A stretch of DNA of 64,000 nucleotides, taken from IMG/VR virus record IMGVR_UViG_3300050821_018098; one strand, 5' to 3'. This stretch comes from a virus (Duplodnaviria; Heunggongvirae; Uroviricota; Caudoviricetes). The notes beneath the pieces are model-generated. The model had not been told where the DNA came from and did no database searches. It saw only the letters and a program-made list of their open reading frames with translations. The position numbers were made by a program, and so were the translations under genes. Shown piece by piece: positions 1,480-49,451 of the stretch; within the stretch, counting starts at the first letter, position 1; each line of letters opens with the position of its first letter.

Positions 1480-4400
1480 TGTTTAAATCAAGTAATTTTA
1501 TTATAGCACCAAGCTCAACAGATCTTAATCTAAAAATTAGGGATGAGTTTAACAACGTAACAAATATTTTAAAAGCTAGTAGTATTTGTAGGTTTCACAA
1601 AGATGGTGATACAATTGTAATAAATTCATCTGATTCTACTTCAGCAATATATTTAAAATTCTATAGTACTGATGAGTCCACATTAGGTATTAATATATTG
1701 TATAATGCCTGGCAGATACTAAAAGCTAATTATTTAGGTCAGGAAGCTAACAAAGCATATGTTGACAGTCAACTTTTTATTGTAGATGCTAGATTGGATA
1801 TTCTTGAAAGTAGTCATTCTACTTCAGGATTATTAATCAATGTAGGTAATGGACTAATAAAAACAGGTCTTAGTACTATATCTCTTGATATTACTGATTA
1901 TGAAACAGATGATACGATAGGATTATCGTCAACATCAGGAATTCTATTTAATGCTGCTTCTTCAACATCTGGATATGTTTCTATTGTTATGAATACTAAC
2001 AATTTTCAAATTATTGATGGTAGAAATACGAAAACAGGTATTCAATATGCTAATGATTATTCTTCTACTTATACAAATAGATCTTTAGTTGATAAAGCCT
2101 ATGTCGATAATAAATTAGCTTCATCTATAACATTTACTCCTGCTGGTGATGTAACAGGAAGTACATCAGGAATAACATCTTTAACCCCTGTTTTAACAAT
2201 AGGAACTAATGTTGTTACATTTTCTAAAATACAACAAATAAATGCTTTTTCTTTAATTGGTAATACTACAGGTTCTACAGCAAATTTAACTAATATTACT
2301 TTAGGATCTGGTTTCAGTTTTGTTGGTACCACATTAGATTATACACCATCTATTAATATAGCAGGTACTTCAGGATATGCAATATTAGCTGGAACAGCGG
2401 GTTTTGCTATCGTAGCAGGCACTGTAATTACAAATGCAAATCTATCTGGTGATATTACTAGTATAGGAAATATAACTAGTTATAATAATATAGTACCAAT
2501 AAGTAAAGGTGGAACACCAACAGGTGGAACTTCAGGACAATTTTTACAGAAAAATTCTAGTACCAATTATGATTATAGTTGGGTTAATTTATATTATCAG
2601 ACTGTACAAGTTTTGAGTACATCTGGTACTGCAAGAGCTAAATTAAATTTTAGTGGTCAATTTTCGCATACAGACGATTCAACTAATAATAGTACTGATA
2701 TCACAATTAGTTCAGTAAACTGGATTTTAATTGCTGGTACACCAACTACCATAGCTGGTTACGGAATTAGTGATGGTGTAACGTTAACAGGTACTCAGGC
2801 TTTAAGTAACAAAACAGGCAATATATCACAATGGACAAACGATTCAGGATATTTACTTAACAATAAAACAATTACTCTTTCTGGAGATGTTACTGGATCT
2901 GGTACTTCAGGTATTGTAACATCTATATCTAATACTATAATTACAGGTAAATTATTAACAGGTTACGCTTCCACTACCGGCGTTATTACAGCTAATGATT
3001 CTATATTAAGTTCTATAGAAAAATTAAATGGTAATATAGGAACCTTGGTTACAGGTGTTTCTACCTTTAATACTAGAAGTGGTAATATTACTTTAACATC
3101 TTCAGATGTTACTACAGCTCTTACCTTTACGCCTTATAATGCAACGAATCCTTCTGGATATTTGATCAACAACCAAACAATTATATTATCAGGCGATGTA
3201 AGTGGAAGTGGTACCTCAGGTATTATTACTTCGGTAAATTGGGTGAATGGATATCCAACCTACGACGCTAGATATGTAACACCTTCTAGTACAAATACAT
3301 TTACAAATAAATCAGGTAACATATCACAGTGGACAAATGATTCTGGTTATATTACTTCTGCTTCTGGTACAGCTGGAGGAGATCTAAATGGTACTTATCC
3401 TAACCCTACTGTGAATTGGGTGAATGGATACCCAACTTATGATGCTAGATATGCCGAGAAATCTGGTGTTACTTTTACTGGTGCTGTAATATTAAGTGCT
3501 GATCCTGTTGTAGCTTTAGGTGCAGCTACTAAAAATTATGTTGATAATCTTGTAACTGGTTTATCATGGAAGAATTCTGTACAAATAGCTACGGTATCAA
3601 ATATTACTTTATCTGGTGAACAAAATATTGATAATGTAATAACGTCAAACTCACGTGTATTAGTAAAAAACCAAACTACACAAACACAAAATGGTATTTA
3701 TGTTTCAAGTACAAGTGGATGGAGCAGATCCAGTGATATGAATATTGGTAGTGAAATATTTGGTGCAACAGTCTATGTTGAGACAGGTAATATAAATGCT
3801 AATACACAATGGTCAAATAATAACACTTCTGGTATAACGGTGGGTGTATCTAATATAAATTTTGTTCAGATAGCAGGTGCTGGAACATATACGAATGGTA
3901 CAGGTATTGTTTTAACAGGAAATGTTTTCAGTATAGATTCAAGTTATACAGCTACATCTGGAAGAACAGGTTATCTATCTTCTAGTGATTGGACAGTATT
4001 TAATAATAAACAAGCAGCTTTAAATGGAACAGGTCTGGTTAAATTTACAGGAACAACACCATCTTATATTACAGGAGCTTCTTCTCAATTTGTTAAAGCT
4101 GATGGTAGTTTGGATTCAAATAGTTATTTAATCAATAATCAAATAATTACTTTATCGGGTGACGTTTCCGGAAGTGGTACTTCAGGTATTACTACTTCTG
4201 TAACATGGTCAAATGGTTACTCAACTTATGATTTAAGGTATGTAACACCATCCAGCACAAATACACTCACAAATAAAACAGGTAATATATCACAATGGAC
4301 TAATGATAACGGATATTTAATTAATAATAAAACTATTACACTATCAGGTGATGTATCTGGGAGTGGGACTTCAGGTATCGTAACTTCTGTTAATTGGCCA

Positions 4401-10400: not shown

Positions 10401-10449
10401 ATGTAAACTTTTTATAGTTTATAGAATATAACAATCAAATAAAACCATT

Positions 10450-11190
10450 ATGAATTTAACTAAACCAACAATTGACTGGTATCAGAAATTGAATCAATTT
10501 AAAAATGATGAATTCAAATTTTTTGAAGCTGAACATGAATACAAATATAAAGGAAAGAAATTTGAAAGTGTAACAACCTTTATAAGTCAATTTCATGAGA
10601 AGTTTGATTCTGATTATTGGAGTCAGATTAAAGCAGAAGAGCGTGGTATCACACAACAAGAAATATTGGCTGAATGGAAAGCTAAAGCTGATAGATCATG
10701 TGATCTTGGTACTATGGTTCATGAGTATGCTGAATACAAATGTGCCGGTAAAGAACCAAAAGAAGTAACTGATGAAGAAGTTAAAAAAAGAATCATAAGT
10801 TTAGAAGAAATATTTGAAACTAAACTGAAGAAGTTTATACCTGTAGCTCAAGAGATAAAAGTATTTTCACCTAAATTAAAACTTGCTGGCACCATAGATG
10901 GTTTATTTGAATATAAACAGAAGTTGGTTGTTGGTGATTATAAAACAAATGAAAAATTTACAACGGATAGTGATAAATGTTATAAAAAGCTTAATCCACC
11001 GTTTCAAAACAGATGGGAAAATAAATTAAATGAATACAGTATACAGGTATCAATGTACCGTCTAATATTAGAAGAATGGGGTATTGAAACTGAGGCAGCA
11101 TTTTTAATACATATTCCACCAGTTGGTAAATCAAATTTCCATATAGCACATGATTTTAGAAATGAATTAAAAATATTCTTTGGTATATAA
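10450..11190 (+). CDS. PD-(D/E)xK nuclease, RecB/lambda-exo/Cas4-like family (no Fe-S Cys cluster)
   Basis: GTIDGLFEY...VVGDYKT (motifs II/III) and QVSMY (QxxxY motif) characteristic of the RecB nuclease family. Confidence 0.5.
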   Translation: MNLTKPTIDWYQKLNQFKNDEFKFFEAEHEYKYKGKKFESVTTFISQFHEKFDSDYWSQIKAEERGITQQEILAEWKAKADRSCDLGTMVHEYAEYKCAGKEPKEVTDEEVKKRIISLEEIFETKLKKFIPVAQEIKVFSPKLKLAGTIDGLFEYKQKLVVGDYKTNEKFTTDSDKCYKKLNPPFQNRWENKLNEYSIQVSMYRLILEEWGIETEAAFLIHIPPVGKSNFHIAHDFRNELKIFFGI

Positions 11191-11197
11191 ATGAAAA

Positions 11198-11237
11198 AAC
11201 CTTCCAAGTGTGCATCATAGAGAGGCATGGAAGGTTT
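11198..11237. terminator. putative bidirectional terminator hairpin between convergent genes
   Basis: aaccttcca...tggaaggtt 9-bp stem with a long loop, flanked by A-run and T-run. Confidence 0.4.
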
Positions 11238-11290
11238 ATTCTAAATGACTCATCAACAGTTCCTATGGTATGTTAGTGAGTACTGTTAAA

Positions 11291-11899
11291 TTACTTCTTA
11301 GCAGAAGGCTTTGGTTTACCAGCAGCTTCAGGAGTTGTAACTTTAGGTGTTACATCAGCTTTTTTATGTTTAGCAGCAGGTTTAGTTTCTGGCAAAGAAA
11401 GTTTACCCTTTTTATCTACTTTAGTAGATTTTTTAGCTTCACTTATACCTTCTGTTTCTTCAGGTTTGGTTTCGTCTGTTTCATCATCAGACATAGTATC
11501 ATCACCAAGACTATCACCCATATCTTCTGTAGAATCAGCAGCATCTGTTGTATCTTCTGCTACTTTTTCACAACAATCAGAAATTTCATCAAGGAATTTT
11601 AACATATCCTCTTTAGTAAACTCATCTTCACTACCTTCTAATTTATCTTTTAAATCAAGAATTTTAGTTTTTATATCAGCTAAAATATCATCAGCATCTA
11701 CTTCATCAGTTTCAGCATCAGTTACATCATCACCAACTTCTTTAGTTTCATCTGAAGTCATAGCATCATCAGCTGGTGCATCAGTCGATGCTGCTGGAGT
11801 TTCTAATTCATCATCAAAAGATTCTTCATTTTCTTGATTTGGTGAATAATTTTCTTTGAACATTTTCCATGTTGGTATTTTCCCGAAAGATTGTTTCAT
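11291..11899 (-). CDS. extremely acidic protein (Asp/Glu/Ser/Thr-rich) with Lys/Pro/Ala-rich basic C-terminal tail
   Basis: 202-aa ORF; body of DDE/TDE runs; C-terminus KKGKLSLPETKPAAKHKKADVTPKVTTPEAAGKPKPSAKK; overlapping plus-strand ORFs are low-complexity mirror frames. Confidence 0.5.
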   Translation of the reverse strand: MKQSFGKIPTWKMFKENYSPNQENEESFDDELETPAASTDAPADDAMTSDETKEVGDDVTDAETDEVDADDILADIKTKILDLKDKLEGSEDEFTKEDMLKFLDEISDCCEKVAEDTTDAADSTEDMGDSLGDDTMSDDETDETKPEETEGISEAKKSTKVDKKGKLSLPETKPAAKHKKADVTPKVTTPEAAGKPKPSAKK

Positions 11900-12052
11900 G
11901 TTTAATTAATTTTATTTTATTTATATATCTACCCAAATAATTCATTTTTTTACTCAGGTCACTTTAGGTAATTATATATCACAAAATAATTTTCTATTTC
12001 CAAAACTATTAACATTCATAGTATATAAAATACAAATATAACTTTAATTAAG

Positions 12053-12718
12053 ATGACGAATTTCGAAAAATTTGCCAAAGGACAAGTAGGCTCATTAGCC
12101 TTACATGATTATGTGAACTATCAAAATAAGATGAAATCTTCTATGTCAGCTTATATTCTTGAAGAAAGAACAGGAAATCTTGCTGTAATGGATATATTTT
12201 CCAGACTTATGATAGACCGAATTATATTTTTAGGTACTGAGATAGATGATATAGTTGCAAATATTGTGAATGCTCAATTGTTATATCTTGACACAGATAA
12301 AGTAAATGAACCAATAAAAATATTTATTAATAGTCCTGGTGGTGAATGTTATAGTGGTCTTGCAATACTAGATTGTATGGATATAGTGAAGTCTCCTGTA
12401 GAAACTGTATGTTTAGGTTTGTCCGCAAGTATGGCTGCTGTTATTTTAGCTCATGGGACCAAAGGTTATAGAAAAGCTACACCAAGAAGCCGAGTGATGA
12501 TTCATCAACCTTCAGGAGGTGCTGGTGGAAACACAACACAAATTTCTATAACGGCTAAAGAATATGAAGAAGTTAAATTCATTTTAGCCGAAACATTAGC
12601 AATTGACACAGGAAAAACTACAGAGGAAATTCTTAATGATTTTGTTTTTGATAAATGGTTAAGTGCTCAAGCAGCTTTGGACTATGGTCTTATTGATAAA
12701 TTAGTTATGAAAAAATAA
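12053..12718 (+). CDS. clpP: ClpP-family serine protease (Clp protease proteolytic subunit-like; candidate prohead protease)
   Basis: GLSASMAAVI (Ser), MIHQPSGG (His), ALDYGLIDKL (Asp) catalytic-triad contexts typical of ClpP/S14. Confidence 0.8.
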   Translation: MTNFEKFAKGQVGSLALHDYVNYQNKMKSSMSAYILEERTGNLAVMDIFSRLMIDRIIFLGTEIDDIVANIVNAQLLYLDTDKVNEPIKIFINSPGGECYSGLAILDCMDIVKSPVETVCLGLSASMAAVILAHGTKGYRKATPRSRVMIHQPSGGAGGNTTQISITAKEYEEVKFILAETLAIDTGKTTEEILNDFVFDKWLSAQAALDYGLIDKLVMKK

Positions 12719-12729
12719 AAAGTAAAACA

Positions 12730-13302
12730 ATGACACTAAATTGGTACGCTGTAAGAATATTAAACAATCAAGAAAATAAAGTAAAAACTTATCTTGATAG
12801 GGAGTTTATTAGAAATATAACCGGAGAATACTTAAATGAAGTATTGATTCCTGTAGAAAGATATTATGAGAAAACTAAAGATGGTAAAAAGAAACTTATA
12901 GAAAAGAAATTATTTTCTGGTTATGTGCTTATTAAAGCTGACTTAAGTAGAGAAATAGTATTGGATACAATTAAAAAAACTCCTGGTATAATTGGGTTTT
13001 TGTCTTATAAAGACAACAATAAATCATCTATACCAACACCTCTAAAAGAAAGAGAAGTTGCTCAATTTTTAGGTAGAGGATCTGATTTAACAGAAGAACA
13101 ATCAACTGATTCTGATTTGTATATCATTGGTGAATCTGTAAGAATAACAGATGGTCCATTTAAAACATTTTTTGGTGAAGTTAAAGAAATTTATGAAGAC
13201 AAGAAGAAAGTAGTAATTGATGTTACTATATTTGGACGTATCACACCAGTCGAAGTTGATTTTAAACAAACAGAAAAAGCCGAACAGAATGTTAAGGTAT
13301 AA
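12730..13302 (+). CDS. nusG: transcription antitermination/elongation factor NusG homolog
   Basis: WYAVRILNNQENKV (NGN), FSGYVLI, and KOW region GESVRITDGPFKTFFGEVKEI...IFGRITPVEVDFKQTEKA closely matching E. coli NusG [21 protein letters not shown]...IFGRATPVELDFSQVEKA. Confidence 0.8.
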   Translation: MTLNWYAVRILNNQENKVKTYLDREFIRNITGEYLNEVLIPVERYYEKTKDGKKKLIEKKLFSGYVLIKADLSREIVLDTIKKTPGIIGFLSYKDNNKSSIPTPLKEREVAQFLGRGSDLTEEQSTDSDLYIIGESVRITDGPFKTFFGEVKEIYEDKKKVVIDVTIFGRITPVEVDFKQTEKAEQNVKV

Positions 13303-23796: not shown

Positions 23797-24024
23797 TTAT
23801 TTCTTGTGACTAGTATGTTCCTTTATGAATTCAGTGCCTTTTTTATAAATATCAGAGCCCTCTATCATTTTAATACTGCTATTTAAAAAAGGTATTTTAC
23901 TTTTTATGAATATGAAAGATGTTGGATCTAGTTTTATAAGTATTATAATACCAATTATACCTCCTGGTATAACTATACAAAGACCAAAAAGTAATAAAAA
24001 AACAAGTAATTTAAATTTATACAT
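23797..24024 (-). CDS. small membrane protein
   Basis: 75-aa ORF with strongly hydrophobic core (LLVFLLLFGLCIVIPGGIIGIIILI). Confidence 0.3.
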   Translation of the reverse strand: MYKFKLLVFLLLFGLCIVIPGGIIGIIILIKLDPTSFIFIKSKIPFLNSSIKMIEGSDIYKKGTEFIKEHTSHKK

Positions 24025-26224
24025 TTGTAAATATATCCTCAGCTTTTATCAAATCTCTTTTAATCCACGACTTTAGTTTACTATACCTATGATTATCCAT
24101 AATAGCTTTATCGACTTTACAACCTTTACTAATAAGATATTTAGTTGTTTTTAAATTTTGTTTTTCAATAGCTTCTCTTAATAATTCATTATTTCTAAAT
24201 GTTATATCAGCATTTTTTTCTTCTATTAACCATTTTAAAATTTTAAATATATTTTCTATTTTTACTTTGTCAGATTCATAATATGATGAAATACAATTTA
24301 ATACATATTCACCATAATGACTATCCACTTTCTTTTCTTCTGATGTTCTGTTTTTAAGCCAATAAGAATCACCGTTATTAGGATCCATTTTTAATGTGCT
24401 TAATAAATATTTAAACATTTCATAATAACCTTCTCGACAACATCTTACTAATTCATGATTATTAGAAAATTGTCTTATAATAGACACTTTTTTCTCTTCA
24501 GCAAAAAATTTAACAAGTTCTAAGTTATTGGAATTTACAGCTTCTATAAATAAAGATTCGTTAAAATTTCGCTCGCTTAAAGAGTCACTATGCCTCATAC
24601 CATCTTTTGACCAATCAGCTTTACTATATTCATCAAAAAACTCTTTGTTCATTTTATTTTTAATATAAAAATCTAACCTATATGCTCTATATTTATTAGG
24701 TTTTTCTTCTGTTAAAAGTAACTTTTTAACGTCATCAATTTTATTATTTTTTACCATCCAAGAACCTAGTTGAGACCACTTATCATAACCTATTACACCA
24801 GTTTCCTTCCATACTTTGTAACAATTCGTCATATCACCTAACTTATAATAAGCATCAAATTTATTTACAGGATCTTTAATAGTATCTTCAATTAGCTCAG
24901 AAAGGAATATTTTATAACTTTTGTCTATAGTATAATAATAATTTCTATAAACATTTATAATTTGTAGTATATAATTTTCGTTTTTTACATATTTCTTAAC
25001 AATATCAACAAATTGATCGAATAGAGATTTATTTTGTAGAAAATAAGTAATCACATTAGGTAGATATTTTGCTACATCTATACGGTCCAGATTATTTAAA
25101 AATAATTCACTTTGTTTATCTCTAAAAATTTTACCTGGTGCCTCACACAAAAGATCCATTTGTTGATCAATAGATAATTTTGAAATATACAATAAGAAAA
25201 TATTATTATTTTTAGAAGAAAGTAAATAATTTACAAGTTCTAGTTTGTTGGCAAACTTTAAAGCTTTTGATTTATTAATAGCTTGTTCAGAATCTAATAC
25301 CTTTATAACACTTGTAGGTATACCAGTTTGTTCTAAATATTTTGTTTTGTTTATACCTACTAAAGGTGTATCATCCTTTTTATGTGCAAAATTCATTTTA
25401 CCGTCTTGTTCTACAGTGAAACCTACAAGAAATAATTTGTCTGTAATATCTTTTTCAAACCACCAAGAAAAATATTGTGCTGCTAAAATATTTTTTGTAT
25501 ACTGTTGAAAATAACTAATACTTCTACTGATACACCAAGCATCAGAACCAAATTTTTTAGAAGCATCAAATGTCAGTATACGACAAACAATAACACCCTT
25601 ATTTATGTCTGTATAAACAATATCTACATCTGTATCACTTTTTAAGTTAGTCAGTAATGTCTCATAATTAGCACTAAAACTTCTTTTAGAAACAAAAGAA
25701 ATCAAAGAACTTAAAAGTGATTGAAAATCTTTAAAAACACTCAATTTCTTTATCAGATCTGATTTATCAGGAAGATCATAAAATAATATAGCAGCCTCTT
25801 TAAATTTATTTTTATTTTCTTGTGTTTGATTATCAACAATATTTTTTAAGTTAGATGGTAGTTCATTAAAAATTTTATTAGCTTTATTGTCACGTTCAAC
25901 TTGATTCATAGCATCTTCCAATTTTTCAGGACCATCTAAAATGTAATCAACCGGAGATTTAGGTAGTTTTTGAATAAGATTATTCCTTTTAAAAAACTCT
26001 AACCTATCAACTAACTTTTTAGCATCATCAAACATAAATTTAAATTCATAATAAAAATATATAAGCATGTAAACATAACCTAAACAATTTTTACTACTAC
26101 AAAATTCTGTATATTGTTTCAGTATTCCGTCACCACTAGGATGTTTTTCAGCCAAATATTTTTTAGCTTTTTGTACATCCTCATTAATAGGTCGAAAATC
26201 ATCAAATTTTTTAAAAAACTTCAT
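24017..26224 (-). CDS. large hypothetical protein with CTS-like leader (MKFFKKFDDFRPINE) and ankyrin-like repeats near C-terminus; candidate injected effector
   Basis: 735-aa ORF; C-terminal NNHELVRCCREGYYEMFKYLLS and RNNELLREAIEKQNLKTTKYLISKGCKVD resemble ankyrin repeat consensus. Confidence 0.4.
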   Translation of the reverse strand: MKFFKKFDDFRPINEDVQKAKKYLAEKHPSGDGILKQYTEFCSSKNCLGYVYMLIYFYYEFKFMFDDAKKLVDRLEFFKRNNLIQKLPKSPVDYILDGPEKLEDAMNQVERDNKANKIFNELPSNLKNIVDNQTQENKNKFKEAAILFYDLPDKSDLIKKLSVFKDFQSLLSSLISFVSKRSFSANYETLLTNLKSDTDVDIVYTDINKGVIVCRILTFDASKKFGSDAWCISRSISYFQQYTKNILAAQYFSWWFEKDITDKLFLVGFTVEQDGKMNFAHKKDDTPLVGINKTKYLEQTGIPTSVIKVLDSEQAINKSKALKFANKLELVNYLLSSKNNNIFLLYISKLSIDQQMDLLCEAPGKIFRDKQSELFLNNLDRIDVAKYLPNVITYFLQNKSLFDQFVDIVKKYVKNENYILQIINVYRNYYYTIDKSYKIFLSELIEDTIKDPVNKFDAYYKLGDMTNCYKVWKETGVIGYDKWSQLGSWMVKNNKIDDVKKLLLTEEKPNKYRAYRLDFYIKNKMNKEFFDEYSKADWSKDGMRHSDSLSERNFNESLFIEAVNSNNLELVKFFAEEKKVSIIRQFSNNHELVRCCREGYYEMFKYLLSTLKMDPNNGDSYWLKNRTSEEKKVDSHYGEYVLNCISSYYESDKVKIENIFKILKWLIEEKNADITFRNNELLREAIEKQNLKTTKYLISKGCKVDKAIMDNHRYSKLKSWIKRDLIKAEDIFTNV

Positions 26225-28939: not shown

Positions 28940-29104
28940 TTTTTACCTTCCATTTGAGATGCTTCCACAACTTACAAGGATTTAAGGAAGTGGTTATGGA
29001 ACGGTGTTTTTACCTTCCATTTGAGATGCTTCCACAACAGCAACTCCATATGTCGTAATGAAATAAGGGGTGTTTTTACCTTCCATTTGAGATGCTTCCA
29101 CAAC
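28940..29104 (-). CRISPR. CRISPR-like mini-array: 3 direct repeats (32-35 nt) and 2 unique spacers (31-35 nt), no cas genes in window
   Basis: TTTTTACCTTCCATTTGAGATGCTTCCACAAC at 28940, 29007, 29073. Repeats 2-3 are preceded by GTG, repeat 1 by TA (degenerate terminal repeat). Spacers ttacaaggatttaaggaagtggttatggaacg and agcaactccatatgtcgtaatgaaataagg are unrelated to each other. On the minus strand the repeat reads GTTGTGGAAGCATCTCAAATGGAAGGTAAAAACAC. Confidence 0.6.
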
Positions 29105-29401
29105 ATATCTAGTATAAGTGTCTGTGTATCACTGTATTTCATATTATATTCAGTATAAAGAATATTCCAGATAGATTCATAACTAACATACAAGATATCA
29201 TTTTTCTTATTGTAATACATCCAGGTAAATCCTTCAATATCTTTGAATATTATATTACCCAGATATTCTACATCTAATGAAATAGTAAGCTTTTCTAAAA
29301 TAGAAACAAAGAATGCTTCTGTACTGATTGTTTTTGTTTTAATTATAATTTCTGAAAACATATAGACAAAAGTATGATATAATAATCAAATTAACAATTT
29401 T

Positions 29402-30574
29402 ATGTATCGTAATAACACAGATAAAAACTATCTTGATCTCATAGACTTGATTTATAATCAAGGTGCTACAAAAAGCGATAGAACTGGTACTGGTACCATA
29501 TCCTATTTTGGTCACCAAATGCGATTTAACCTTCTAGAAGGTTTCCCACTAGTAACAGTTAAGAAAACATTTCATAAAGCAATCACACATGAATTATTGT
29601 GGTTTTTAGATGCTGTTGATCCCTATTACAAAGATTATGGTAATACCAATATTAAATATCTTGTTGATAATAAAGTATCAATATGGAATGAGTGGGCTCT
29701 TAAACCATATCTGGAAGCTACAGGTAAAGGACATATTAAACCAAATGCTCCTGAATGGGAGTCTGTCTGGAATGATGAAATGAAAATATTTGTAGAAAAA
29801 GTAAGAACTGATGATGTATTTGCGAAACAGTGGGGTGAACTAGGTCCTGTATATGGTAAACAGTGGACAGATTGGGGTGGTTCAATGCAAATGCTTCCAA
29901 TGCCTGGAACACAAGATGAATATTTTGGAGGATCGTTTGGTGGACCAACACAAGTAAATTTTGCACCATTATCTCTACAACATATTAAAGGAATCAATCA
30001 AATAGAAAATGTAATACATAAACTACGTAATCGTCCCGATGATAGACGTATAATTGTTTCAGCATGGAATGTTTCTGAAATAGATCAAATGGCCCTTCCG
30101 CCATGCCATGCCTTCTTTCAATTTTATTCTTTCGAAATGACTAATGAAGACAGAGTTAAAAGCTTTACACAGTGGGCTCTTAAACATGGTTATGATATAA
30201 CTGGAATGTCCACAGAGAACGCCTTGATACATTATAATTTTCCAAAAAGAAAACTCAATCTACAACTATATCAAAGATCCGTAGATGTCTGCATTGGTTT
30301 GCCATTTAATATAGCTAGTTATGCGTTAATTTTGGAAATGATAGCTCAAGTTACGGATCATTTAGCTTTTGAATTTATACATACTTCAGGAGATGCACAT
30401 ATTTACCTTAATCATATGGATAGTATTGCTGATTTTAAAAATAATGAATCATACCCATTACCAACATTATATCTGGATAGAAATATAAAAGAGCTCTCTG
30501 ATTTCAGAATTGAACATATTAATATAAGTAATTATCAAAGCCATCCTTATATACCACTCAAAGTAGCTGTATAA
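29402..30574 (+). CDS. thyA: thymidylate synthase ThyA (with about 45-aa insertion)
   Basis: DRTGTGT, FGHQMRFNL, DRRIIVSAWN, active-site PCHAFFQFY, QLYQRSVDVCIGLPFNIASYAL (Asn retained, so dUMP-specific). Confidence 0.9.
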   Translation: MYRNNTDKNYLDLIDLIYNQGATKSDRTGTGTISYFGHQMRFNLLEGFPLVTVKKTFHKAITHELLWFLDAVDPYYKDYGNTNIKYLVDNKVSIWNEWALKPYLEATGKGHIKPNAPEWESVWNDEMKIFVEKVRTDDVFAKQWGELGPVYGKQWTDWGGSMQMLPMPGTQDEYFGGSFGGPTQVNFAPLSLQHIKGINQIENVIHKLRNRPDDRRIIVSAWNVSEIDQMALPPCHAFFQFYSFEMTNEDRVKSFTQWALKHGYDITGMSTENALIHYNFPKRKLNLQLYQRSVDVCIGLPFNIASYALILEMIAQVTDHLAFEFIHTSGDAHIYLNHMDSIADFKNNESYPLPTLYLDRNIKELSDFRIEHINISNYQSHPYIPLKVAV

Positions 30575-30595
30575 ACTATTGATTTAAAGCTATTA

Positions 30596-30628
30596 AAAAC
30601 CTCATAAATTAAATTTATGAGGTTTTTA
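30596..30628 (+). terminator. rho-independent terminator
   Basis: aacctcataaatt-aa-atttatgaggtt 13-bp perfect stem followed by ttttt. Confidence 0.8.
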
Positions 30629-30672
30629 AATTTTTTATATGATAATATCATAGAAATTTTTAGCTTTGCAAC

Positions 30673-31215
30673 ATGATGGAACTCCTTAATGAATTTACAA
30701 AAGCAGAATTGATATTTTTCTGTATTGGTATTATAGCAACTGTACTATTTATAATTCAAACTTCACTAAGCTTTATTGGTACTGATGATATTGAATTTGA
30801 TACTGAAGAAGGTTTCGAAATATTAACAATCAAAAATTTAGTTATTTTTATGATGATCTTCGGTTGGTCTGGAATGGTTGCTATTGATAGTTTTAAATTA
30901 CAAATTTCCTCTTCCATAGTATTCTCTTTTACTATTTCAGTACTAGTAATTTTTATACTATCCGGTATAGTATATTTTATGAGTAAGATGAAACATGATG
31001 GTACAATTAAAATGGAGAATTGTATTGGTAAAATAGCTCAGGTGTATCTGAATGTAAGTCCCCAAGGAATGGGTAAAGTAACATTATCTGTTCAAGGAGC
31101 TTATAGAGAATTCGATGCTATATCAAAAAACAAAGTTTATATACCATCAGGAGCCAATGTAAAAGTCACAGGATTTCAAGATAATATTCTTGAAGTAGAA
31201 ACAATTAATTCATAA
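30673..31215 (+). CDS. NfeD-like membrane protein (partner of SPFH/flotillin proteins)
   Basis: N-terminal TM helices, C-terminal beta-rich OB-like segment GKIAQVYLNVSPQGMGKVTLSVQGAYREFDAISKNKVYIPSGANVKVTGFQDNILEVE; located directly upstream of flotillin-like gene as in yqiJ-yqiK. Confidence 0.5.
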   Translation: MMELLNEFTKAELIFFCIGIIATVLFIIQTSLSFIGTDDIEFDTEEGFEILTIKNLVIFMMIFGWSGMVAIDSFKLQISSSIVFSFTISVLVIFILSGIVYFMSKMKHDGTIKMENCIGKIAQVYLNVSPQGMGKVTLSVQGAYREFDAISKNKVYIPSGANVKVTGFQDNILEVETINS

Positions 31216-31240
31216 TTTTAAACAAATATAAATCACAACT

Positions 31241-32773
31241 ATGTACTCAATAATTTTAGCATCCTTAATTTTTGTTGTATTATTTGCAACAGTATACTCT
31301 ATTTTCAAACGCTATAAAAGATGTCCATCGGATAAAATACTCGTAATCTATGGTAAAGTAGGTGGTGAAAATAGTTCTAAATGTATCCATGGTGGAGCAG
31401 CATTTATATGGCCGGTCTTCCAGGAATCAACTTTCCTTGATTTAAAACCAATTGCTCTCAAAGTAGATGTTGACAAAGCATTATCGAAACAAAACATTCG
31501 ACTCAATGTTAAGTCTAATTTCACTATAGGTATATCTACAGAACCAACAATCATGACTAATGCTGCTGAAAGGCTTCTTGGTTTACAAACAACTAGTATA
31601 TCGACATTGGCTGAAGATATCATTGTTGGTCAGCTAAGACAAATAATTTCTTTAATGGATATTGAAGAAATAAATACTGACCGGGATAAATTCTTGACAA
31701 ACATTCAGAGTAACGTTGAAAATGAACTTAAGAAAATCGGTCTAAAATTGATTAATGTCAATATTGTTGATATTAAAGATGAATCTGGGTACATTGATGC
31801 TCTTGGTAAAGAAGCTGCTGCTAAAGCCTTAAATGATGCTAAAAAATCTGTAGCAGAAAAAGACAGAGATGGTGCCATCGGTGAAGCTGACGCAAATCAG
31901 GATAAGATAACTAAAGTATCTAAGCTTACAGCTCAATCGGAGATCGGTAAAGCAAATGCCGAAAGAGAGAAACGTACTAATATAGCTGATGCCAATGCTT
32001 TAGCAGTAGAAGGTGAAAACACGGCACAGATTAAAATAGCTAAGTCTGAAGCAGAAAAGAGAGAAGCTTTAGCTCAGGCAAATAAAACAGCAACTGTAGC
32101 TGAACAAGTTGCTCAAGCAAAAGCTAAAGAAGAATCATACTCAGCACAAACAAAAGCTGAGTTAGCTCGTGCTGAAATGTCAAAAGCTACCAAAGAAGCA
32201 GATATTATTGTTGATACTGATATAGCAAAGAGAAAACTTGTTATTGAGGCTCAGGCCGAAGCTGAATCATTAATAGAGAAAGCTAAAGGTCAAGCTAATT
32301 CAGCTATTGAAATCGCTAAAGGTGAGGCCGAATCAGTATTTCTGAAACTTGAAGCTGAAGCAAAAGGTAATTATGAAATTTTAGCTAAACAAGCAAAAGG
32401 TTTCGAAGAACTTGTTAAAGCTGCCGGAGGAGATCCTAAAACAGCGATTCAATATCTTATCAGTGAGAAAATAGTAGAGATTTACAAAATCCAAGCAGAT
32501 GCTATACAAAATATCAAAATTGATAAAATTACTGTATGGGAAAACGGTGGAGGAAAAGATGGTGGATCTTCAACAACAAATTTCATCAATAGTCTTTTAC
32601 AAGCAATTCCACCAAATGCTGATCTTTTGAATATGGTGGAACAGAGTCTTCCTGGATTCTTAGATGCTATAAAGACTAAAGAAATTAAAGAAATTAAAGA
32701 AAATCAACCAGTTTTGGTGACAGGTGCTGGAAAAGAAAATAATAATAATAATTCACAATTACTTAAAAGCTAA
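31241..32773 (+). CDS. SPFH/band-7 flotillin-like protein (YqiK/FloT family)
   Basis: N-terminal TM anchor then PSDKILVIYGKVGG...IHGGAAFIWPVFQESTFLDLKPIALKVDV SPFH core; long Ala/Glu/Lys-rich coiled-coil typical of flotillins. Confidence 0.75.
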   Translation: MYSIILASLIFVVLFATVYSIFKRYKRCPSDKILVIYGKVGGENSSKCIHGGAAFIWPVFQESTFLDLKPIALKVDVDKALSKQNIRLNVKSNFTIGISTEPTIMTNAAERLLGLQTTSISTLAEDIIVGQLRQIISLMDIEEINTDRDKFLTNIQSNVENELKKIGLKLINVNIVDIKDESGYIDALGKEAAAKALNDAKKSVAEKDRDGAIGEADANQDKITKVSKLTAQSEIGKANAEREKRTNIADANALAVEGENTAQIKIAKSEAEKREALAQANKTATVAEQVAQAKAKEESYSAQTKAELARAEMSKATKEADIIVDTDIAKRKLVIEAQAEAESLIEKAKGQANSAIEIAKGEAESVFLKLEAEAKGNYEILAKQAKGFEELVKAAGGDPKTAIQYLISEKIVEIYKIQADAIQNIKIDKITVWENGGGKDGGSSTTNFINSLLQAIPPNADLLNMVEQSLPGFLDAIKTKEIKEIKENQPVLVTGAGKENNNNNSQLLKS

Positions 32774-32779
32774 TTTACT

Positions 32780-33790
32780 ATGATACTAATACTTGCAATT
32801 CTTGTTACAGTGTCGGGCTTCTTTGCCGGCCTTATCCTATCTTTCATGGGTTTAGATATATCTGATTTAGAAAGAAAAGCGAAACTTGGTGATAAAAGAG
32901 CAACCAAGATATTACCGTTAAGAAGAAAGAGTAATCAATTACTCTCCACACTTATGATGTGTAATGTGTTTATCAACTCAACAATTTCAACCTTTATGTC
33001 TGAAGGTGGTAATGGTGGAATAACATCTATAATCATATCAGCATCATTGATCTTAGTTTTTGGTGACATTGTGCCTACAGCAATCTGTAATAAATATAAA
33101 ATGTCTATAGCATCATATACAACACCTTTGGTTTACGTCATGTTTTATATTTTATGGCCTATAACTTATCCATTATCATATGTTCTTGACAGATGGCTTC
33201 ATGTTGAAATGACAACAATGTTTACTAAGAATGAAATAAAAGAAATTATTCATGCTCATGAAAAACACTCTACTATAGATACACACGAAAAGAATATTAT
33301 GATCGGTGGTTTAACTTATTCTTCTAAGTCTGTTCTTGATATTATGACACCTATAACACAACTTTATCGTATTAATATAGATAAGCCGGTGACATTAGAA
33401 GAATTAAAGAAACAAAATTATGCAAGGGTTCCTGTATATCAGGGTACTAGAGATAATGTTATTGGAATATTATTTCTTAAAGATCTTGTCGGAGAATCTT
33501 CTGTACAAATAGATGTTGCTAAGAAATACAGACAGGATGGTATCATAAAAGTTATGGAGACAGAAAAACTTGATGTCTTGCTTAACAAGCTTATAAAACA
33601 ACAAGTACACATGTCTTTTGTATATGATCAGTATGGTACATTAAGAGGCGTTGTAACAATGGAAGATATTTTAGAAACCATTATTGATCGTGAAATTTTA
33701 GATGAATCTGATTTAATTGTAGATCATCAAGAAGAAGCGAAAAGAACTTTTGATATCGAAAAAACTTCTGAGTTAGAAAAAATATCATAA
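32780..33790 (+). CDS. CNNM/CorC/TlyC-family membrane protein (DUF21 transmembrane domain + CBS pair)
   Basis: N-terminal DUF21-like TM domain (ILAILVTVSGFFAGLILSFMGLD...LSTLMMCNVFINS) followed by two CBS-like segments (IMTP..., VPVYQG..., HMSFVYDQYGTLRGVVTMEDILE). Confidence 0.65.
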   Translation: MILILAILVTVSGFFAGLILSFMGLDISDLERKAKLGDKRATKILPLRRKSNQLLSTLMMCNVFINSTISTFMSEGGNGGITSIIISASLILVFGDIVPTAICNKYKMSIASYTTPLVYVMFYILWPITYPLSYVLDRWLHVEMTTMFTKNEIKEIIHAHEKHSTIDTHEKNIMIGGLTYSSKSVLDIMTPITQLYRINIDKPVTLEELKKQNYARVPVYQGTRDNVIGILFLKDLVGESSVQIDVAKKYRQDGIIKVMETEKLDVLLNKLIKQQVHMSFVYDQYGTLRGVVTMEDILETIIDREILDESDLIVDHQEEAKRTFDIEKTSELEKIS

Positions 33791-33814: not shown

Positions 33815-33846
33815 GAGGGATAGGTTTTACAAAATTAACTATCCCT
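33815..33846 (+). terminator. possible terminator hairpin (long loop, weak T-tract)
   Basis: gagggatag...ctatccctc 9-bp stem with 14-nt loop after the CNNM-like gene. Confidence 0.3.
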
Positions 33847-34042
33847 CATTTAATTTGATAAAAAATAACAGTATGTAAAACATGAAAATATGGAGGAGTA
33901 CTTTAGCGAATATTTTATATTTTTTAATCCCTGCTGCTTTAGTATTTAACATTAATCCCAATGTTTCCATATTGATTATGTTAGTATGTATATCATATTT
34001 AAAGTATAAGCATTTAGAACGTAAGAGAGATAATATCCAAGA

Positions 34043-34744
34043 TTAAATATTTGATATAACCATCGCTGGCTCTTGTTCACAATTCCATTTAAACCAATAA
34101 AAATCAACATCCTGTATATGATATGGAGATTCCTCATATATTATATTTATTTTTGGCTTCTCATCTTGAGTAATAACTTCATCTACAACTATTTTACTTC
34201 CTGGTTTTACAAAAATATTTTGTCCCCAACTATTTTTTACATTGATTCCAGCATTAACTATCCATCTACCAGTATGTGGTTTGAAATAGTCATGTAAAAT
34301 GTTTTTTAAAATACCAATTACTTTAATCTTTACAGATGCATTACCATATACCTCATCGAAACTTGATGATTTGAAGAATGGTGTTTGAAATCCACCCCAG
34401 TTTTGAAATATACCTAAAAATATTTGTTCACCTATAATGAATTTCAAATATATGTCAAGAAGATTCAAATTGTTATCGAACATTTTAAGTATAAAAACTT
34501 GTTTCATATCAACATTTGAACTGTCAACATAACTACCACCATGAAGATTTCTTAAACCGGTTGAAATTTGTACTAAAGTATCTATTTGTTGTCTTTTAAG
34601 GCCAGCATATCTATCAAAAGGATCAAAAGATAATTGTGGATCTCTTGGTTGCATTGCACCTGTACCAGTACTAAGACTTTGAAACATGAATTCGCTAGTT
34701 TCAGTTAGTTTTTCAAAATCATCATATTTCTTAATAAACTTCAT
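34043..34744 (-). CDS. hypothetical protein with CTS-like leader (MKFIKKYDDFEKLTE); candidate head-packaged internal protein
   Basis: 233-aa ORF; leader motif shared with 5 other ORFs. Confidence 0.4.
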   Translation of the reverse strand: MKFIKKYDDFEKLTETSEFMFQSLSTGTGAMQPRDPQLSFDPFDRYAGLKRQQIDTLVQISTGLRNLHGGSYVDSSNVDMKQVFILKMFDNNLNLLDIYLKFIIGEQIFLGIFQNWGGFQTPFFKSSSFDEVYGNASVKIKVIGILKNILHDYFKPHTGRWIVNAGINVKNSWGQNIFVKPGSKIVVDEVITQDEKPKINIIYEESPYHIQDVDFYWFKWNCEQEPAMVISNI

Positions 34745-45944: not shown

Positions 45945-48900
45945 CTATGATCCACAAGCCTCACAATTTTCTGGATTATCAAGTGAACAGGATAGTTGAC
46001 TACTAGATTCATCTTCAGTAATTGTTGTAAGTATATCTACTTTCACTGTAGCTTTTTGCTCTACAGTAAATTGAACAGCATCAATACCGGTTTGTGTTCT
46101 TAGATAATACATACCTGTTTTTAAAGCTTTTTGTGGTGTAGTACCATATTTAACATCTAACTCAGATTTAGTAACTCCACCACCCCATCCATAGAAATGC
46201 ATACCATTAAGTTTAGCAAAATTAGGATCTTTCATATAGATATTCATTGATTGTGTTTGATCCATATAAGCTCCACGATCAGCATATTGATCAATAACAT
46301 CTTTTTGACTAATTTCCCAAACTGTTTTGAAAATATCTTTGATATCCTGAGGTATAATATCTATATTTTGTATAGAACCTTTACCACGAATAATCTCATT
46401 CTTCATTGCTTCAGTCCAAAGGCCTCTTTCACAAAGAGTTTTAACTAAATATTTATTTAATACAACAAATTCACCTGAAAGAAGTCTTCTTGTATAAATG
46501 TTAGAAGTTTGAGCTTCGCAACTAGCTTCATTACCAAATATACTTGCTGTTGAAGCTGTAGGCATAGCACAAGTAATCAAACTGTTTCTTATACCATACT
46601 GTTTAATTTTATCTTTTAATGCATCCCAATCGTATCTACCTGGTTCTGGAACTATATTCCACATATCGAATTGAAGAGTACCTTGTGATGCTGGAGAGCC
46701 TTCAAATGTTTCATAAGGACCATCTTTTTTAGCCAAATCACAAGATGCTTTCATAGAAGAATAGTAAATAGTTTCAAATATTTGTTTATTTAAAATTTTT
46801 GCTTCTTCTGAGGCAAAAGGAATTTTTAATTTGAAATATACATCAGCTAAACCTTGTACTCCAAGCCCGATAGGTCTGTGTTTCAAATTAGATTTTTTAG
46901 CTTCTTCTACAGGATAATAGTTAATATCAATAACTTTATTCAAATTAACTGTCGCAACATAAGCAACTTCTTCCAATTTTTTAAAATTAAATGTACCATC
47001 ATCTTTAACAAATCTTGGTAAACATAATGATGCAAGATTACATACAGCTACCTCATCAGGAGCAACATATTCAACGATTTCAAGGCATAAATTCCCATTT
47101 TTTATAACACCAATATTTTTTTGATTAGATTTTACGTTAATCGAATCTTTATAAGCAATATATGGAGCACCAGTTTCAATTTGAGATTCCAATATTTTTT
47201 TCCATAGATCCCGAGCTTTAACTTGTTTTTTGAACTTACCTTCCAGTTCATATTTTTCATAAAGAGTAACAAAATCATCCCCATAAACATCCATTAATCC
47301 AGGAGATTCATTAGGACACATTAAACTCCATACAAGATCTTTCTCAACACGCTGCATAAATAAATCACACATCCATATAGCAGTAAACAAATCTCTTGTA
47401 CGCATCTCTTCTTTACCATTATTCTTTCTTAAATCAAGAAAGTCAAATATATCAGCGTGCCATGGTTCTAAGTACATGGCAAAACTTCCTTTCCTTTTCC
47501 CACCCCCGTTATGAGCTAAACCTATATGTGTAACATACTCATGATTTGTGTCTATTTCAAAATCATATACATTCCCAGCATACTTCGTTTTATTAATATC
47601 AGTAATTCTTGTATAAAGATAATTATCATGCACCATGAAGTTAACCCATTCACCAACTTCTATATTAAACAAATCAGCAATATCTTGAACTTTAGGTATT
47701 CTTATACAGTAACTAACTTTAGCATGTTTACGACCAGATGTATACTCGATATTTCTTCTGTCTCTGATATAACCGGAAGTAAATATACCAAACCGCATTA
47801 ACATATATCTTGTAGATTCAATTACATTTCTTGAAGTCATTTCCAGAGTCAATTCTTTAGAAATACATCCATCAGAGAGCATTAAGCCTTTAAACAAACC
47901 AAGACTTTTATCTTTTGGTAAATGTAAAAGATTTTTATGTATTATTTTTTCAGCATTATGATCATAAAAATATTCCCTATTAAATTTAAATCTTTCGTTT
48001 ATACAAAAATAAATTACTGTCATATTAGGATGATATGTATCATCTAATATAGAATATTTTATTATGTTATCATTAAGATACTGTTCAACAAAAGCTAAAG
48101 CTTCTATATCAGTATTTTCTAAATATATTTTACACTCTGTACTTTCTTTATTAATATACCCATCACCAACAATAATACCATACATTATAGCATCACTAAC
48201 AGAAATACTCGAAATATCTTTTTCATAATTCACTATTGGTGTTACTAGAAAATCATCAACCTTCAAATCTTTTGTTTCAATCCATTCAGGTTTTATTATT
48301 CCTTTTTCCAACCTGTTTTTAATAACAGAATAATTTACGCCTTTCTCTTGTTGTAAAGTAAACATTGGATGTTGTGTTGTAACAATTACTGGATCGATAG
48401 AATGTTTTGTTTCAATAGCAAGAAAATCTTTATGTTGAGCTGGATAACGTCTTGTTCTAAGGACTTCTTGAAATGTTCCATCACTAGTTAAAACTTTATC
48501 ACCTATTACTATTTTACCTATTTGTTTTGGTCCTTCAATAGTATAAATAATAGTTTCATAAGCGAAACACTGATCTACATAGCGAGCTGTGTCATTGTAT
48601 ACACGAAGCATTGGTACAATACCGTTAGAAGTACCATTGGTACCTTTAATATAGGATCCTGTTGCTCTAATATTAGAAATAGAAATTCCTATACCACCAG
48701 CAGCTTGTGAAATTTTAGCACATTGTTTTAATGTGTCATATATTCCATCTATTGAATCGTTTTTCATTTGTAATAAAAAACATGAGCTCATTTGCGGCTT
48801 TTGCGTTCCAGCATTGAATAAACTAGGTGTGGCATGTGTGAAATAAAACTGTGAAATTAAGTTATATGTTTTGATTGCACTCTTAATATCTTTACCATGA

Positions 48901-49451
48901 ATACCAACAGCAGTTCTCATAAAAAGATATTGGGGTCTTTCTATAATTTTCCCGTCAATTTTTAATAGATAAGATTTTTCTAAAGTTTTAAATCCCATAT
49001 AATCCAAAAGAAAATCTCTTGTTTGAATTATAGCTGCATCTATTTCATCTTTGTTTTCTTGAACTATATCATTGAATTCTTTTGAAACAAGTGGTGCATG
49101 TTCACCATTTTCTTTGTTTACATAATCGTACATTTTCTGAGATGTTTCAGAAAAACTTTTGAATGTTTTTTTGTAGAGATTTGTAATAGCTAATCTCGCA
49201 GCTAGATAAGAATAGTCAGGATGTTTTACTGTTAAAACAGCAGCCGTCTCAACGGCTAAATTGTCTAATTGCTCCGATGTAACACCATCATAAAGACCTT
49301 CTACTACTTTTTGTGCAACCTCACTTGGGTTCACCCATAATCTATCTAAGCTAAAGGTTTCACGCTCAATCCTTCCGTAAATTTTATCAAGATTTACGGT
49401 CTCTTTTTTTCCATTACTTTTAATAACTTGCATATTCGTTTTGTAATCCAT
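45945..49451 (-). CDS. nrdA: ribonucleotide reductase class Ia large subunit (R1/NrdA, eukaryote/T4-like type) interrupted by a 354-aa intein
   Basis: ATP-cone N-terminus; [20 protein letters not shown] | intein | [23 protein letters not shown] matches R1 core; C-terminal catalytic NCxE region and C-terminal CxxC tail (CEACGS). Confidence 0.9.
47508..48569 (-). mobile_element. intein (Hint domain + double-LAGLIDADG homing endonuclease) inserted in nrdA between VDQ and GGGKRKG
   Basis: Block [14 protein letters not shown]..., block [10 protein letters not shown] (TxxH), LAGLIDADG motifs [11 protein letters not shown] and [13 protein letters not shown], block [22 protein letters not shown]; +1 residue is Gly (verified at DNA level: gct cat aac ggg ggt ggg aaa). 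Confidence 0.75.

Follow-up and report, generated by a model that had tools for sequence, protein, structure and literature searches.

In the closest described cellular systems, YuaF-FloT of Bacillus subtilis (yuaF-yuaG) and YqiJ-YqiK of E. coli, a small protein with several transmembrane (TM) segments and a C-terminal NfeD beta domain is encoded directly upstream of a flotillin of ~500 aa, in which an N-terminal anchor and an SPFH domain are followed by a long coiled-coil rich in Ala and Glu. Phages encode SPFH proteins as well: flotillins are annotated in Vibrio phage KIT04, crAss-like phage csAssE-Sib and Brevundimonas jumbo phages, and SPFH open reading frames (ORFs) of the T4-like phages 44RR, Aeh1 and RB43 were tabulated in 2006 (PMC1524935). 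Such genes have been noticed for twenty years with no role assigned, and a 2026 paper still calls the reason for SPFH in phages unclear (PMC13239085). A second membrane protein family, which includes the eukaryotic CNNM1-4 and 'unextended' proteins and the CorB/CorC/MpfA/GldE proteins, is also present in phage databases, as PHROG 10948 (function unknown) and as genes of Lak megaphages, which are unannotated or undiscussed; a literature search found no published discussion of phage CNNM genes. Here we describe a locus in which the two families are encoded side by side, in a 64,000-nt stretch of a Caudoviricetes virus (IMG/VR record IMGVR_UViG_3300050821_018098), referred to below as the window. 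Three genes make up the locus:

30673-31215, + strand, NfeD-like gene, 180 aa
31241-32773, + strand, flotillin-type SPFH gene, 510 aa
32780-33790, + strand, short CNNM-type gene, 336 aa

The reading that we favour, with moderate confidence, is that the locus consists of two independently acquired host-type membrane modules, an NfeD-flotillin pair and a short CNNM, set among the replication and nucleotide-metabolism genes of a large phage as auxiliary host-physiology genes. Two modules are proposed because the pair recurs without a CNNM and the short CNNM recurs without an SPFH gene: no SPFH gene adjoins the CNNM in the six other short-CNNM contexts (L006, L008, L009, L013, L014 and L100), and no CNNM lies beside the NfeD-flotillin pairs of three other phage contexts (L011, L012 and csAssE-Sib). 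Among the contexts retrieved, CNNM and flotillin are adjacent only in this phage, and scans of IMG/VR and metagenomes gave no further example. The three-gene arrangement thus appears to be a lineage-specific juxtaposition rather than a conserved operon. Each gene belongs to a kind already known from phages; the juxtaposition is new, though not demonstrably functional.

By its sequence, the 510-aa protein is a member of the flotillin family. Pfam Band_7 (PF01145) matched residues 31-208 with 97.4 bits against a cutoff of 23.6, and the layout is that of the YuaF-FloT and YqiJ-YqiK flotillins, with a single hydrophobic N-terminal segment (residues 4-22), the SPFH domain (31-208) and a coiled-coil (209-400) in which Ala, Glu, Lys and Gln make up 54% of residues. 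Its best relatives in the PDB are the human flotillin-1/-2 cage complexes (E ~5e-27, residues 47-466). Unlike the described pairs, that of the window is phage-borne and has its nearest cellular relatives among Flavobacteriia pairs, and the equivalog model for B. subtilis FloT (NCBIfam NF058507) gave 145 bits against a cutoff of 700, so that by this model the protein is not a FloT ortholog. Thousands of cellular flotillins are 51-61% identical to it, the named matches coming from Polaribacter, Mariniflexile, Lutibacter, Salibacteraceae, Flavisolibacter and other Flavobacteriia/Bacteroidota, together with one Leptolyngbya (cyanobacterial) metagenome-assembled genome (MAG). The annotated phage flotillins are, in contrast, only 26-44% identical, the window copy being much nearer to those of Flavobacteriia, and the two of these contexts that were inspected (KIT04 and csAssE-Sib) have no CNNM neighbour, unlike the window.

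The 180-aa protein is NfeD-like, of the YuaF or short NfeD1b type, and a candidate flotillin partner. The assignment is sub-threshold by Pfam NfeD (PF01957), which gave 21.3 bits against a gathering cutoff of 29.1 (E = 3e-4, model positions 2-56 of 57), and it is corroborated by a match to YuaF, by gene order and by a Flavobacteriia homolog. In the PDB, the top match of a profile built from four sequences of the NfeD-like family was YuaF (2k14; E = 5.7e-4). Three hydrophobic segments (~13-31, 53-74 and 82-100) precede a soluble C-terminus, and a single-sequence AlphaFold2 (AF2) model of low confidence (predicted local distance difference test score, pLDDT, 50; too poor for a fold search) placed three long helices and five strands at 122-177. 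A word-indexed search with the protein returned the self-match only, and homologs were traced through gene position. The gene lies directly upstream of the SPFH gene, and homologous genes precede flotillins in L011 (42% identity, E = 2e-46), in L012 (31%, E = 2e-21) and in the cellular genome of Mariniflexile fucanivorans (L099), where the product of 190 aa is 36% identical (E = 7e-33); in csAssE-Sib a small TM gene upstream of the flotillin is weakly related.

Taken together, the two genes appear to reproduce a two-gene unit of cellular Flavobacteriia, acquired whole from a Flavobacteriia-like genome. In M. fucanivorans the 190-aa gene stops 3 nt before the flotillin and the pair is homologous gene for gene to that of the phage, in keeping with the proposal, made in a first-pass annotation of the window from the letters alone, that NfeD-SPFH pairs are conserved bacterial units. 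The closest flotillins (P0122, 61%, and P0123, 59%) also come from phage-like contigs, and a homologous gene of ~180 aa lies directly upstream of each. Further flotillin relatives in IMG/VR (L003-L005, ~53% identity) are at contig edges, beside terminase and portal genes, on prophage-like contigs of higher G+C, and were set aside as uninformative for synteny.

The third protein has the TM and CBS core of the CNNM and CorB/CorC families and little else. Pfam CNNM/DUF21 matched residues 3-169 with 119.1 bits against a cutoff of 28.4, Pfam CBS matched the second CBS motif with 40.2 bits against 24, and residues 170-309 align to the Bateman modules of CNNM2/4 and CorC. The protein starts at TM1, comprises the DUF21 TM domain, an acidic helical linker and the CBS pair, and stops ~25 residues past that pair, with no Pfam match to CorC_HlyC (PF03471) and no CNBH domain. 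It matches PHROG 10948 (1.2e-36). The AF2 model (pLDDT 76) had the archaeal MtCorB as its top Foldseek match, over the full length (E = 8e-19), and the modelled CBS region superposes on CorC/CNNM Bateman modules with a TM-score of ~0.8 and a root-mean-square deviation of 2.1-2.5 Å. The domain assignments of the first-pass annotation were largely borne out: the SPFH protein with its long Ala/Glu/Lys coiled-coil, and the DUF21 protein with a CBS pair and lacking CorC_HlyC, both scored above the profile cutoffs, so that the possibility it had named of failed SPFH and DUF21 profiles did not materialise, while its NfeD-like protein with TM helices and a C-terminal beta domain is supported although the Pfam score by itself falls short.

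Close relatives of the CNNM are few, all short (304-351 aa) and all without CorC_HlyC, and the six other contexts retrieved are all large-phage-like. Their gene orders are as follows:

L006, short CNNM between terminase and a T4 gp13-like gene
L008, ribonucleotide reductase (RNR)-thioredoxin-...-ThyA-X-CNNM, on a 151-kb contig
L009, L013 and L014, short CNNM with R2K ATP-grasp, Thg1, RNA ligase and ThyA
L100, ThyA-X-CNNM, with a ThyA 67% identical to that of the window

The simplest reading of these contexts is an ancestral order thyA-X-CNNM, in which the NfeD-flotillin cassette would now occupy the X slot. The window lacks a homolog of the gene X seen in L100 and L008, and the small genes 5' of other phage CNNMs (L006, L008 and L009), considered as candidate NfeD genes, proved unrelated to NfeD. 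Scans of IMG/VR and metagenomes for further close CNNM relatives gave nothing useful. In L013 a ClpP-class protease gene (12300-13040) with a weak NfeD1b_N match, which may encode a long-form NfeD protease, lies directly after thyA, ~4.5 kb from the CNNM.

Judged by sequence comparison, the short CNNM subfamily is closer to the eukaryotic CNNMs than to canonical bacterial CorB/CorC, which was unexpected. The best solved-structure match of the window protein is human CNNM4 (PDB 9y9d; 161 bits over the TM and CBS core), compared with 105 bits for MtCorB. In single-sequence phmmer searches it scored 150-196 bits against eukaryote-type proteins and at most 128 (median 97) against the bacterial CorC_HlyC type. 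The canonical bacterial proteins (420-450 aa, with CorC_HlyC) are at most 31% identical. Proteins of the CorB/CorC/MpfA/GldE type (MtCorB, 7m1t; TpCorC) share with it the DUF21, acidic helical bundle and CBS-pair core and most of the Mg2+ ligands, but align at ~28% identity with many gaps, and the GldE model gave 134 bits against a cutoff of 376. Amphioxus CNNM4-like protein, in comparison, aligns at 32% with few gaps. With the short subfamily the eukaryotic proteins share a TM3 signature of the GEIxPQA type, with Gln at position 100 where the window protein has Thr, and an E-I-L-D-E-S-D motif; from them the window protein differs in having neither the extracellular N-terminal domain nor the C-terminal CNBH, and in carrying A16, D96 and T100. 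The position that follows the TM3 proline holds Gln in 38 of 42 short and all 45 eukaryotic sequences and Lys in all 45 bacterial CorB-type sequences sampled; in the window protein it is Thr 100.

A HMMER search of 1.84 billion representatives with a profile of the short clade placed ~35 short proteins at the top and, next in rank, more than 100 longer proteins (500-980 aa) that match internally; the longer ones that carry a name are all eukaryotic (MMETSP protists, a choanoflagellate, a mollusc, amphioxus, a spider, a mite and a bedbug). No protein of CorB length (~410-470 aa) exceeded 330 bits in this search; few of that length were among the matches listed, and these carried no identification. 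A bootstrapped neighbour-joining tree of 146 sequences (322 columns, 200 replicates), with a biased bacterial sample and with archaeal diversity not included, separated the bacterial type in 200/200 replicates and gave a eukaryotic clade that excludes all short forms in 185/200. In this topology the short forms stand as a sister group or grade to the eukaryotic proteins, not as a recent transfer from eukaryotes. Among 185,579 species genomes scanned, two cellular members of the short subfamily were recovered (39% identity; 445 and 433 bits on the clade profile; L019 4986-6026 and L020 4944-6011), in a Spirochaetes MAG, among LacI, HAMP and CheA genes, and in a Saprospiraceae MAG, among proteins sorted by the type IX secretion system (T9SS). 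These are genuine members in cellular contexts, and the idea of a phage-exclusive clade was rejected. A recent eukaryote-to-phage transfer was likewise rejected, given the tree and given that the Saprospiraceae short form is nearer to the amphioxus CNNM4-like protein (38% identity) than is the phage protein (32%). The CNNM-like copies of Lak megaphages align only over residues 90-324, at ~31% identity. As a separate observation, giant-virus MAGs (IMG/VR GVMAG contigs L015-L018) encode CNNM homologs of 534-558 aa that are 32-33% identical to the window protein and score ~300 bits on the short-clade profile. The eukaryote-like affinity of the short subfamily is the most interesting by-product of this analysis; the subfamily bears on the origin of the eukaryotic CNNMs, and a eukaryote-like core of 336 aa free of accessory domains could be a useful model for the CNNM transport mechanism.

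The locus is inside a phage replication and nucleotide-metabolism module. Strong PHROG matches in the window include thymidylate synthase, a UvsX-like recombinase, a DnaB-like helicase, a clamp loader, class I RNR subunits, exonucleases, a helicase and a nuclease, and two of these genes flank the locus:

29402-30574, + strand, thymidylate synthase (thyA), Pfam Thymidylat_synt 310.6 bits, 67% identical to the ThyA of phage contig L100
34848-36098, + strand, UvsX-like recombinase, PHROG 97 (8.9e-55), phage DNA downstream of the locus

At the DNA level the uvsX gene is nearest to those of uncultured 635-kb phages and of T4-like phages. All three proteins of the locus are on record in exact form from JGI, Logan and ENA, on two contigs of which the longer is 167 kb; exact searches for the gene junctions returned no match. 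The assembly is independently supported by these protein records and by synteny. The source is a large phage, its contig reaching at least 167 kb, and its host is probably one of the Bacteroidota. Among the other phage-like contigs with a short CNNM, L009 encodes a reprolysin-type metalloprotease with a T9SS C-terminal sorting domain (Por_Secre_tail; 10422-12182), which points to a Bacteroidota host for that phage. The window ThyA is long for its family: it has 390 aa and matches the Pfam model of 266 positions end to end, which leaves ~120 aa of inserted sequence, and long forms occur in L100 (359 aa) and L013 (383 aa) as well.

The three genes are probably a single transcription unit, as indicated by short unstructured junctions and by hairpins at both ends. 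The gaps between NfeD-like gene and flotillin (25 nt) and between flotillin and CNNM (6 nt) contain no predicted structure, and the unit is bounded by two elements:

30593-30629, + strand, terminator-like hairpin on the thyA side, 17-bp stem followed by a T-run, upstream boundary
33815-33847, + strand, hairpin past the CNNM stop, GAGGGATAG...CTATCCCTC, downstream boundary

The upstream hairpin begins 19 nt past the thyA stop and has a folding energy of -17.7 kcal/mol (z = -5.9; equalled by 0 of 200 shuffles). The downstream hairpin, with a G+C-rich stem of 9 bp and a loop of 15 nt, is weaker (-15.1 kcal/mol, z = -2.9; equalled by 1 of 200 shuffles) and failed the terminator-scan criteria. The earlier description of three co-directional genes at 30673-33790 was exact in its coordinates, whereas its strong flanking hairpins apply in full to the upstream element, the downstream one being real and weaker. 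A candidate Bacteroidota -7 promoter motif, TAGCTTTG, 4 nt 5' of the first ATG was discarded: TAnnTTTG occurs 108 times against 112 ± 10 expected, and being unenriched it is evidence for neither a promoter nor a host. A sigma-70 promoter scan gave 35 matches, with 33 in shuffled sequence, and thus no excess. Downstream, 35 nt after the second hairpin, an ORF of 54 aa (33882-34046, +) with two hydrophobic stretches may encode a small membrane protein or be a chance ORF.

The residues that line the Mg2+ site are partly conserved in the phage CNNM. In TpCorC the ligands are S43, S47, N90, G129 and E130, corresponding to S196, S200, N250, G283 and E284 of CNNM4 (PMC7875539). The window protein has S12, A16, N62, G95 and D96 at these positions, three of the five being identical, and it retains both an Asn with a putative link to Na+ (N66) and the Pro of the pi-helix (P99). 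In liposome assays of TtCorB, Ser-to-Ala mutants of the Mg2+ site still transported and had raised activity, and changes around the Glu/Pro/Lys turn lowered transport (PMC8242095). The phage CNNM is probably an active cation transporter with modified properties, as far as these residues can tell.

In the sequence of events that we propose, the NfeD-flotillin pair would have been captured as a unit from a Flavobacteriia-like genome, and the CNNM inherited beside thyA within the large-phage lineage. By homology, the flotillin would assemble as an oligomeric SPFH cage at the cytoplasmic side of the membrane, the small NfeD protein would be its partner in the membrane, and a CNNM dimer would move Mg2+ or a related cation under the control of nucleotide binding to the CBS pair. 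On the most economical functional reading, expression of these proteins by the phage may keep the membrane organisation and the Mg2+/cation balance of the infected cell favourable through a long infection; no physical coupling of the two modules is implied. The functions put forward in the first-pass annotation, remodelling of membrane domains and ion homeostasis, are plausible. Several points weigh against this proposal. The Mg2+ site is derived in the window subclade, with Ser replaced by Ala (A16), Glu by Asp (D96) and Gln by Thr (T100), where other short forms keep Ser, Glu and Gln, and the substrate or the direction of transport may therefore differ. Mg2+ efflux would bring no obvious benefit to a replicating phage. 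The contexts sampled number seven for the CNNM and four for the flotillin. Phage flotillins are 59-63% identical to one another and 55-59% identical to cellular ones, a marginal difference that does not distinguish one capture from several. Finally, the taxonomy of homologs is the only ground for a Bacteroidota host, the Bacteroidota promoter motif not being enriched.

Other explanations were weighed against the two-module reading. The first-pass annotation had itself pointed out that the region could be host DNA joined to phage DNA in a chimeric assembly, a possibility to which the identity of the flotillin to cellular flotillins and the slightly raised G+C over 31-33 kb (0.34 over the flotillin against ~0.30, in a window that is low throughout at 0.25-0.35) lend some colour. 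It is effectively refuted, since phage genes stand on both sides, less than 100 nt before the first ORF and ~1 kb past the CNNM stop, the thyA...CNNM order is common to related phage contigs, the nearest flotillin relatives are on phage-like contigs, ~60% identity is not that of recent host DNA, and the identical three proteins come from two contigs and three sources; the phage setting assumed by that annotation is upheld by the same flanking genes and synteny. We also regard it as unlikely that the three products form one functional complex, in which a flotillin/NfeD cage scaffolds or gates the CNNM in a phage-built microdomain. Flotillins such as FloT and FloA are scaffolds for membrane proteins, and the 6-nt junction without structure suggests co-transcription of flotillin and CNNM; set against this, the adjacency is confined to this phage, with an SPFH gene in 0 of 6 other short-CNNM contexts and a CNNM in 0 of 3 other phage NfeD-flotillin contexts. 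The suggestion of a three-gene functional operon is for this reason not sustained, the histories of the CNNM and of the pair being separate, and the synteny to other phages that it called for was found in part: thyA...CNNM is shared and the pair recurs on other phage-like contigs, but the three genes occur together nowhere else among the contexts retrieved. A broader proposal, which we consider speculative and rather doubtful as a whole, is that the short subfamily, found in phages and a few bacteria, is the closest non-eukaryotic relative of the CNNMs with phages as its carriers, and that an A16/D96/T100 variant with altered ion handling and a captured flotillin cage, under common control, would build a phage microdomain that resets cation homeostasis.

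A role in superinfection exclusion or inter-phage competition, with an altered membrane or cation flux blocking DNA injection by a second phage, had been raised as well, along with a link to defence systems. The locus encodes membrane proteins only and lies among non-structural genes, and accessory phage genes in such positions often mediate exclusion. The role of phage SPFH genes is acknowledged to be unclear in the 2026 paper cited above (PMC13239085). We nonetheless judge it improbable: PADLOC-DB v2 gave no match at E ≤ 0.01 for the NfeD-like protein, flotillin or CNNM, a literature search found no paper tying SPFH to an anti-phage or defence system, and the proteins bear no resemblance to known exclusion proteins such as Imm or Sp, so that neither the exclusion nor the defence suggestion gained ground. 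There is, further, a small chance that the CNNM homolog, instead of transporting Mg2+, is an exporter of a different cation or of a polyamine, like PaeA, or a regulator of a host channel, a role of the kind proposed for some eukaryotic CNNMs. The three substitutions in or next to the ion site and a weak similarity to NCBIfam PaeA (44.6 bits) point in this direction, and whether CNNM transport is direct or indirect is debated in the field (PMC8242095). The PaeA score is, for its part, far under its cutoff of 500, one of the ligand changes is conservative alongside the identical ligands and the retained pi-helix proline, and the TtCorB Ser-to-Ala mutants still moved Mg2+. None of these three rivals (one complex, exclusion, another substrate) has positive support. 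The locus offers a clean testable case, in which a large phage would carry, in one transcription unit, a complete NfeD-flotillin pair of host type together with a minimal CNNM core; if these genes sustain membrane integrity or Mg2+ balance, they would lengthen the list of auxiliary host-physiology functions of large phages.

Several other genes of the window were recorded alongside the locus. The RNR large subunit (45945-49451, -; 1168 aa) is split by a LAGLIDADG homing-endonuclease intein at residues ~292-648, as read from Pfam Hint, Intein_splicing and LAGLIDADG_3 matches between its N-terminal and barrel domains. A protein of 735 aa (24017-26224, -) has no PHROG match; towards its C-terminus it carries ankyrin repeats (Ank_2, 1.3e-9), an unusual feature for a phage. 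An ORF of 1862 aa (1479-7067, +) matches only the DUF5907 repeat and PHROG 27782 of unknown function, and the ORF of 769 aa that follows it has a weak GDSL-lipase match; both may encode structural or host-interaction proteins. Just upstream of thyA on the opposite strand, translation of a 129-aa ORF (28972-29361, -) revealed a near-perfect internal duplication, LWKHLKWKVKTP...LWKHLKWKVKTP.

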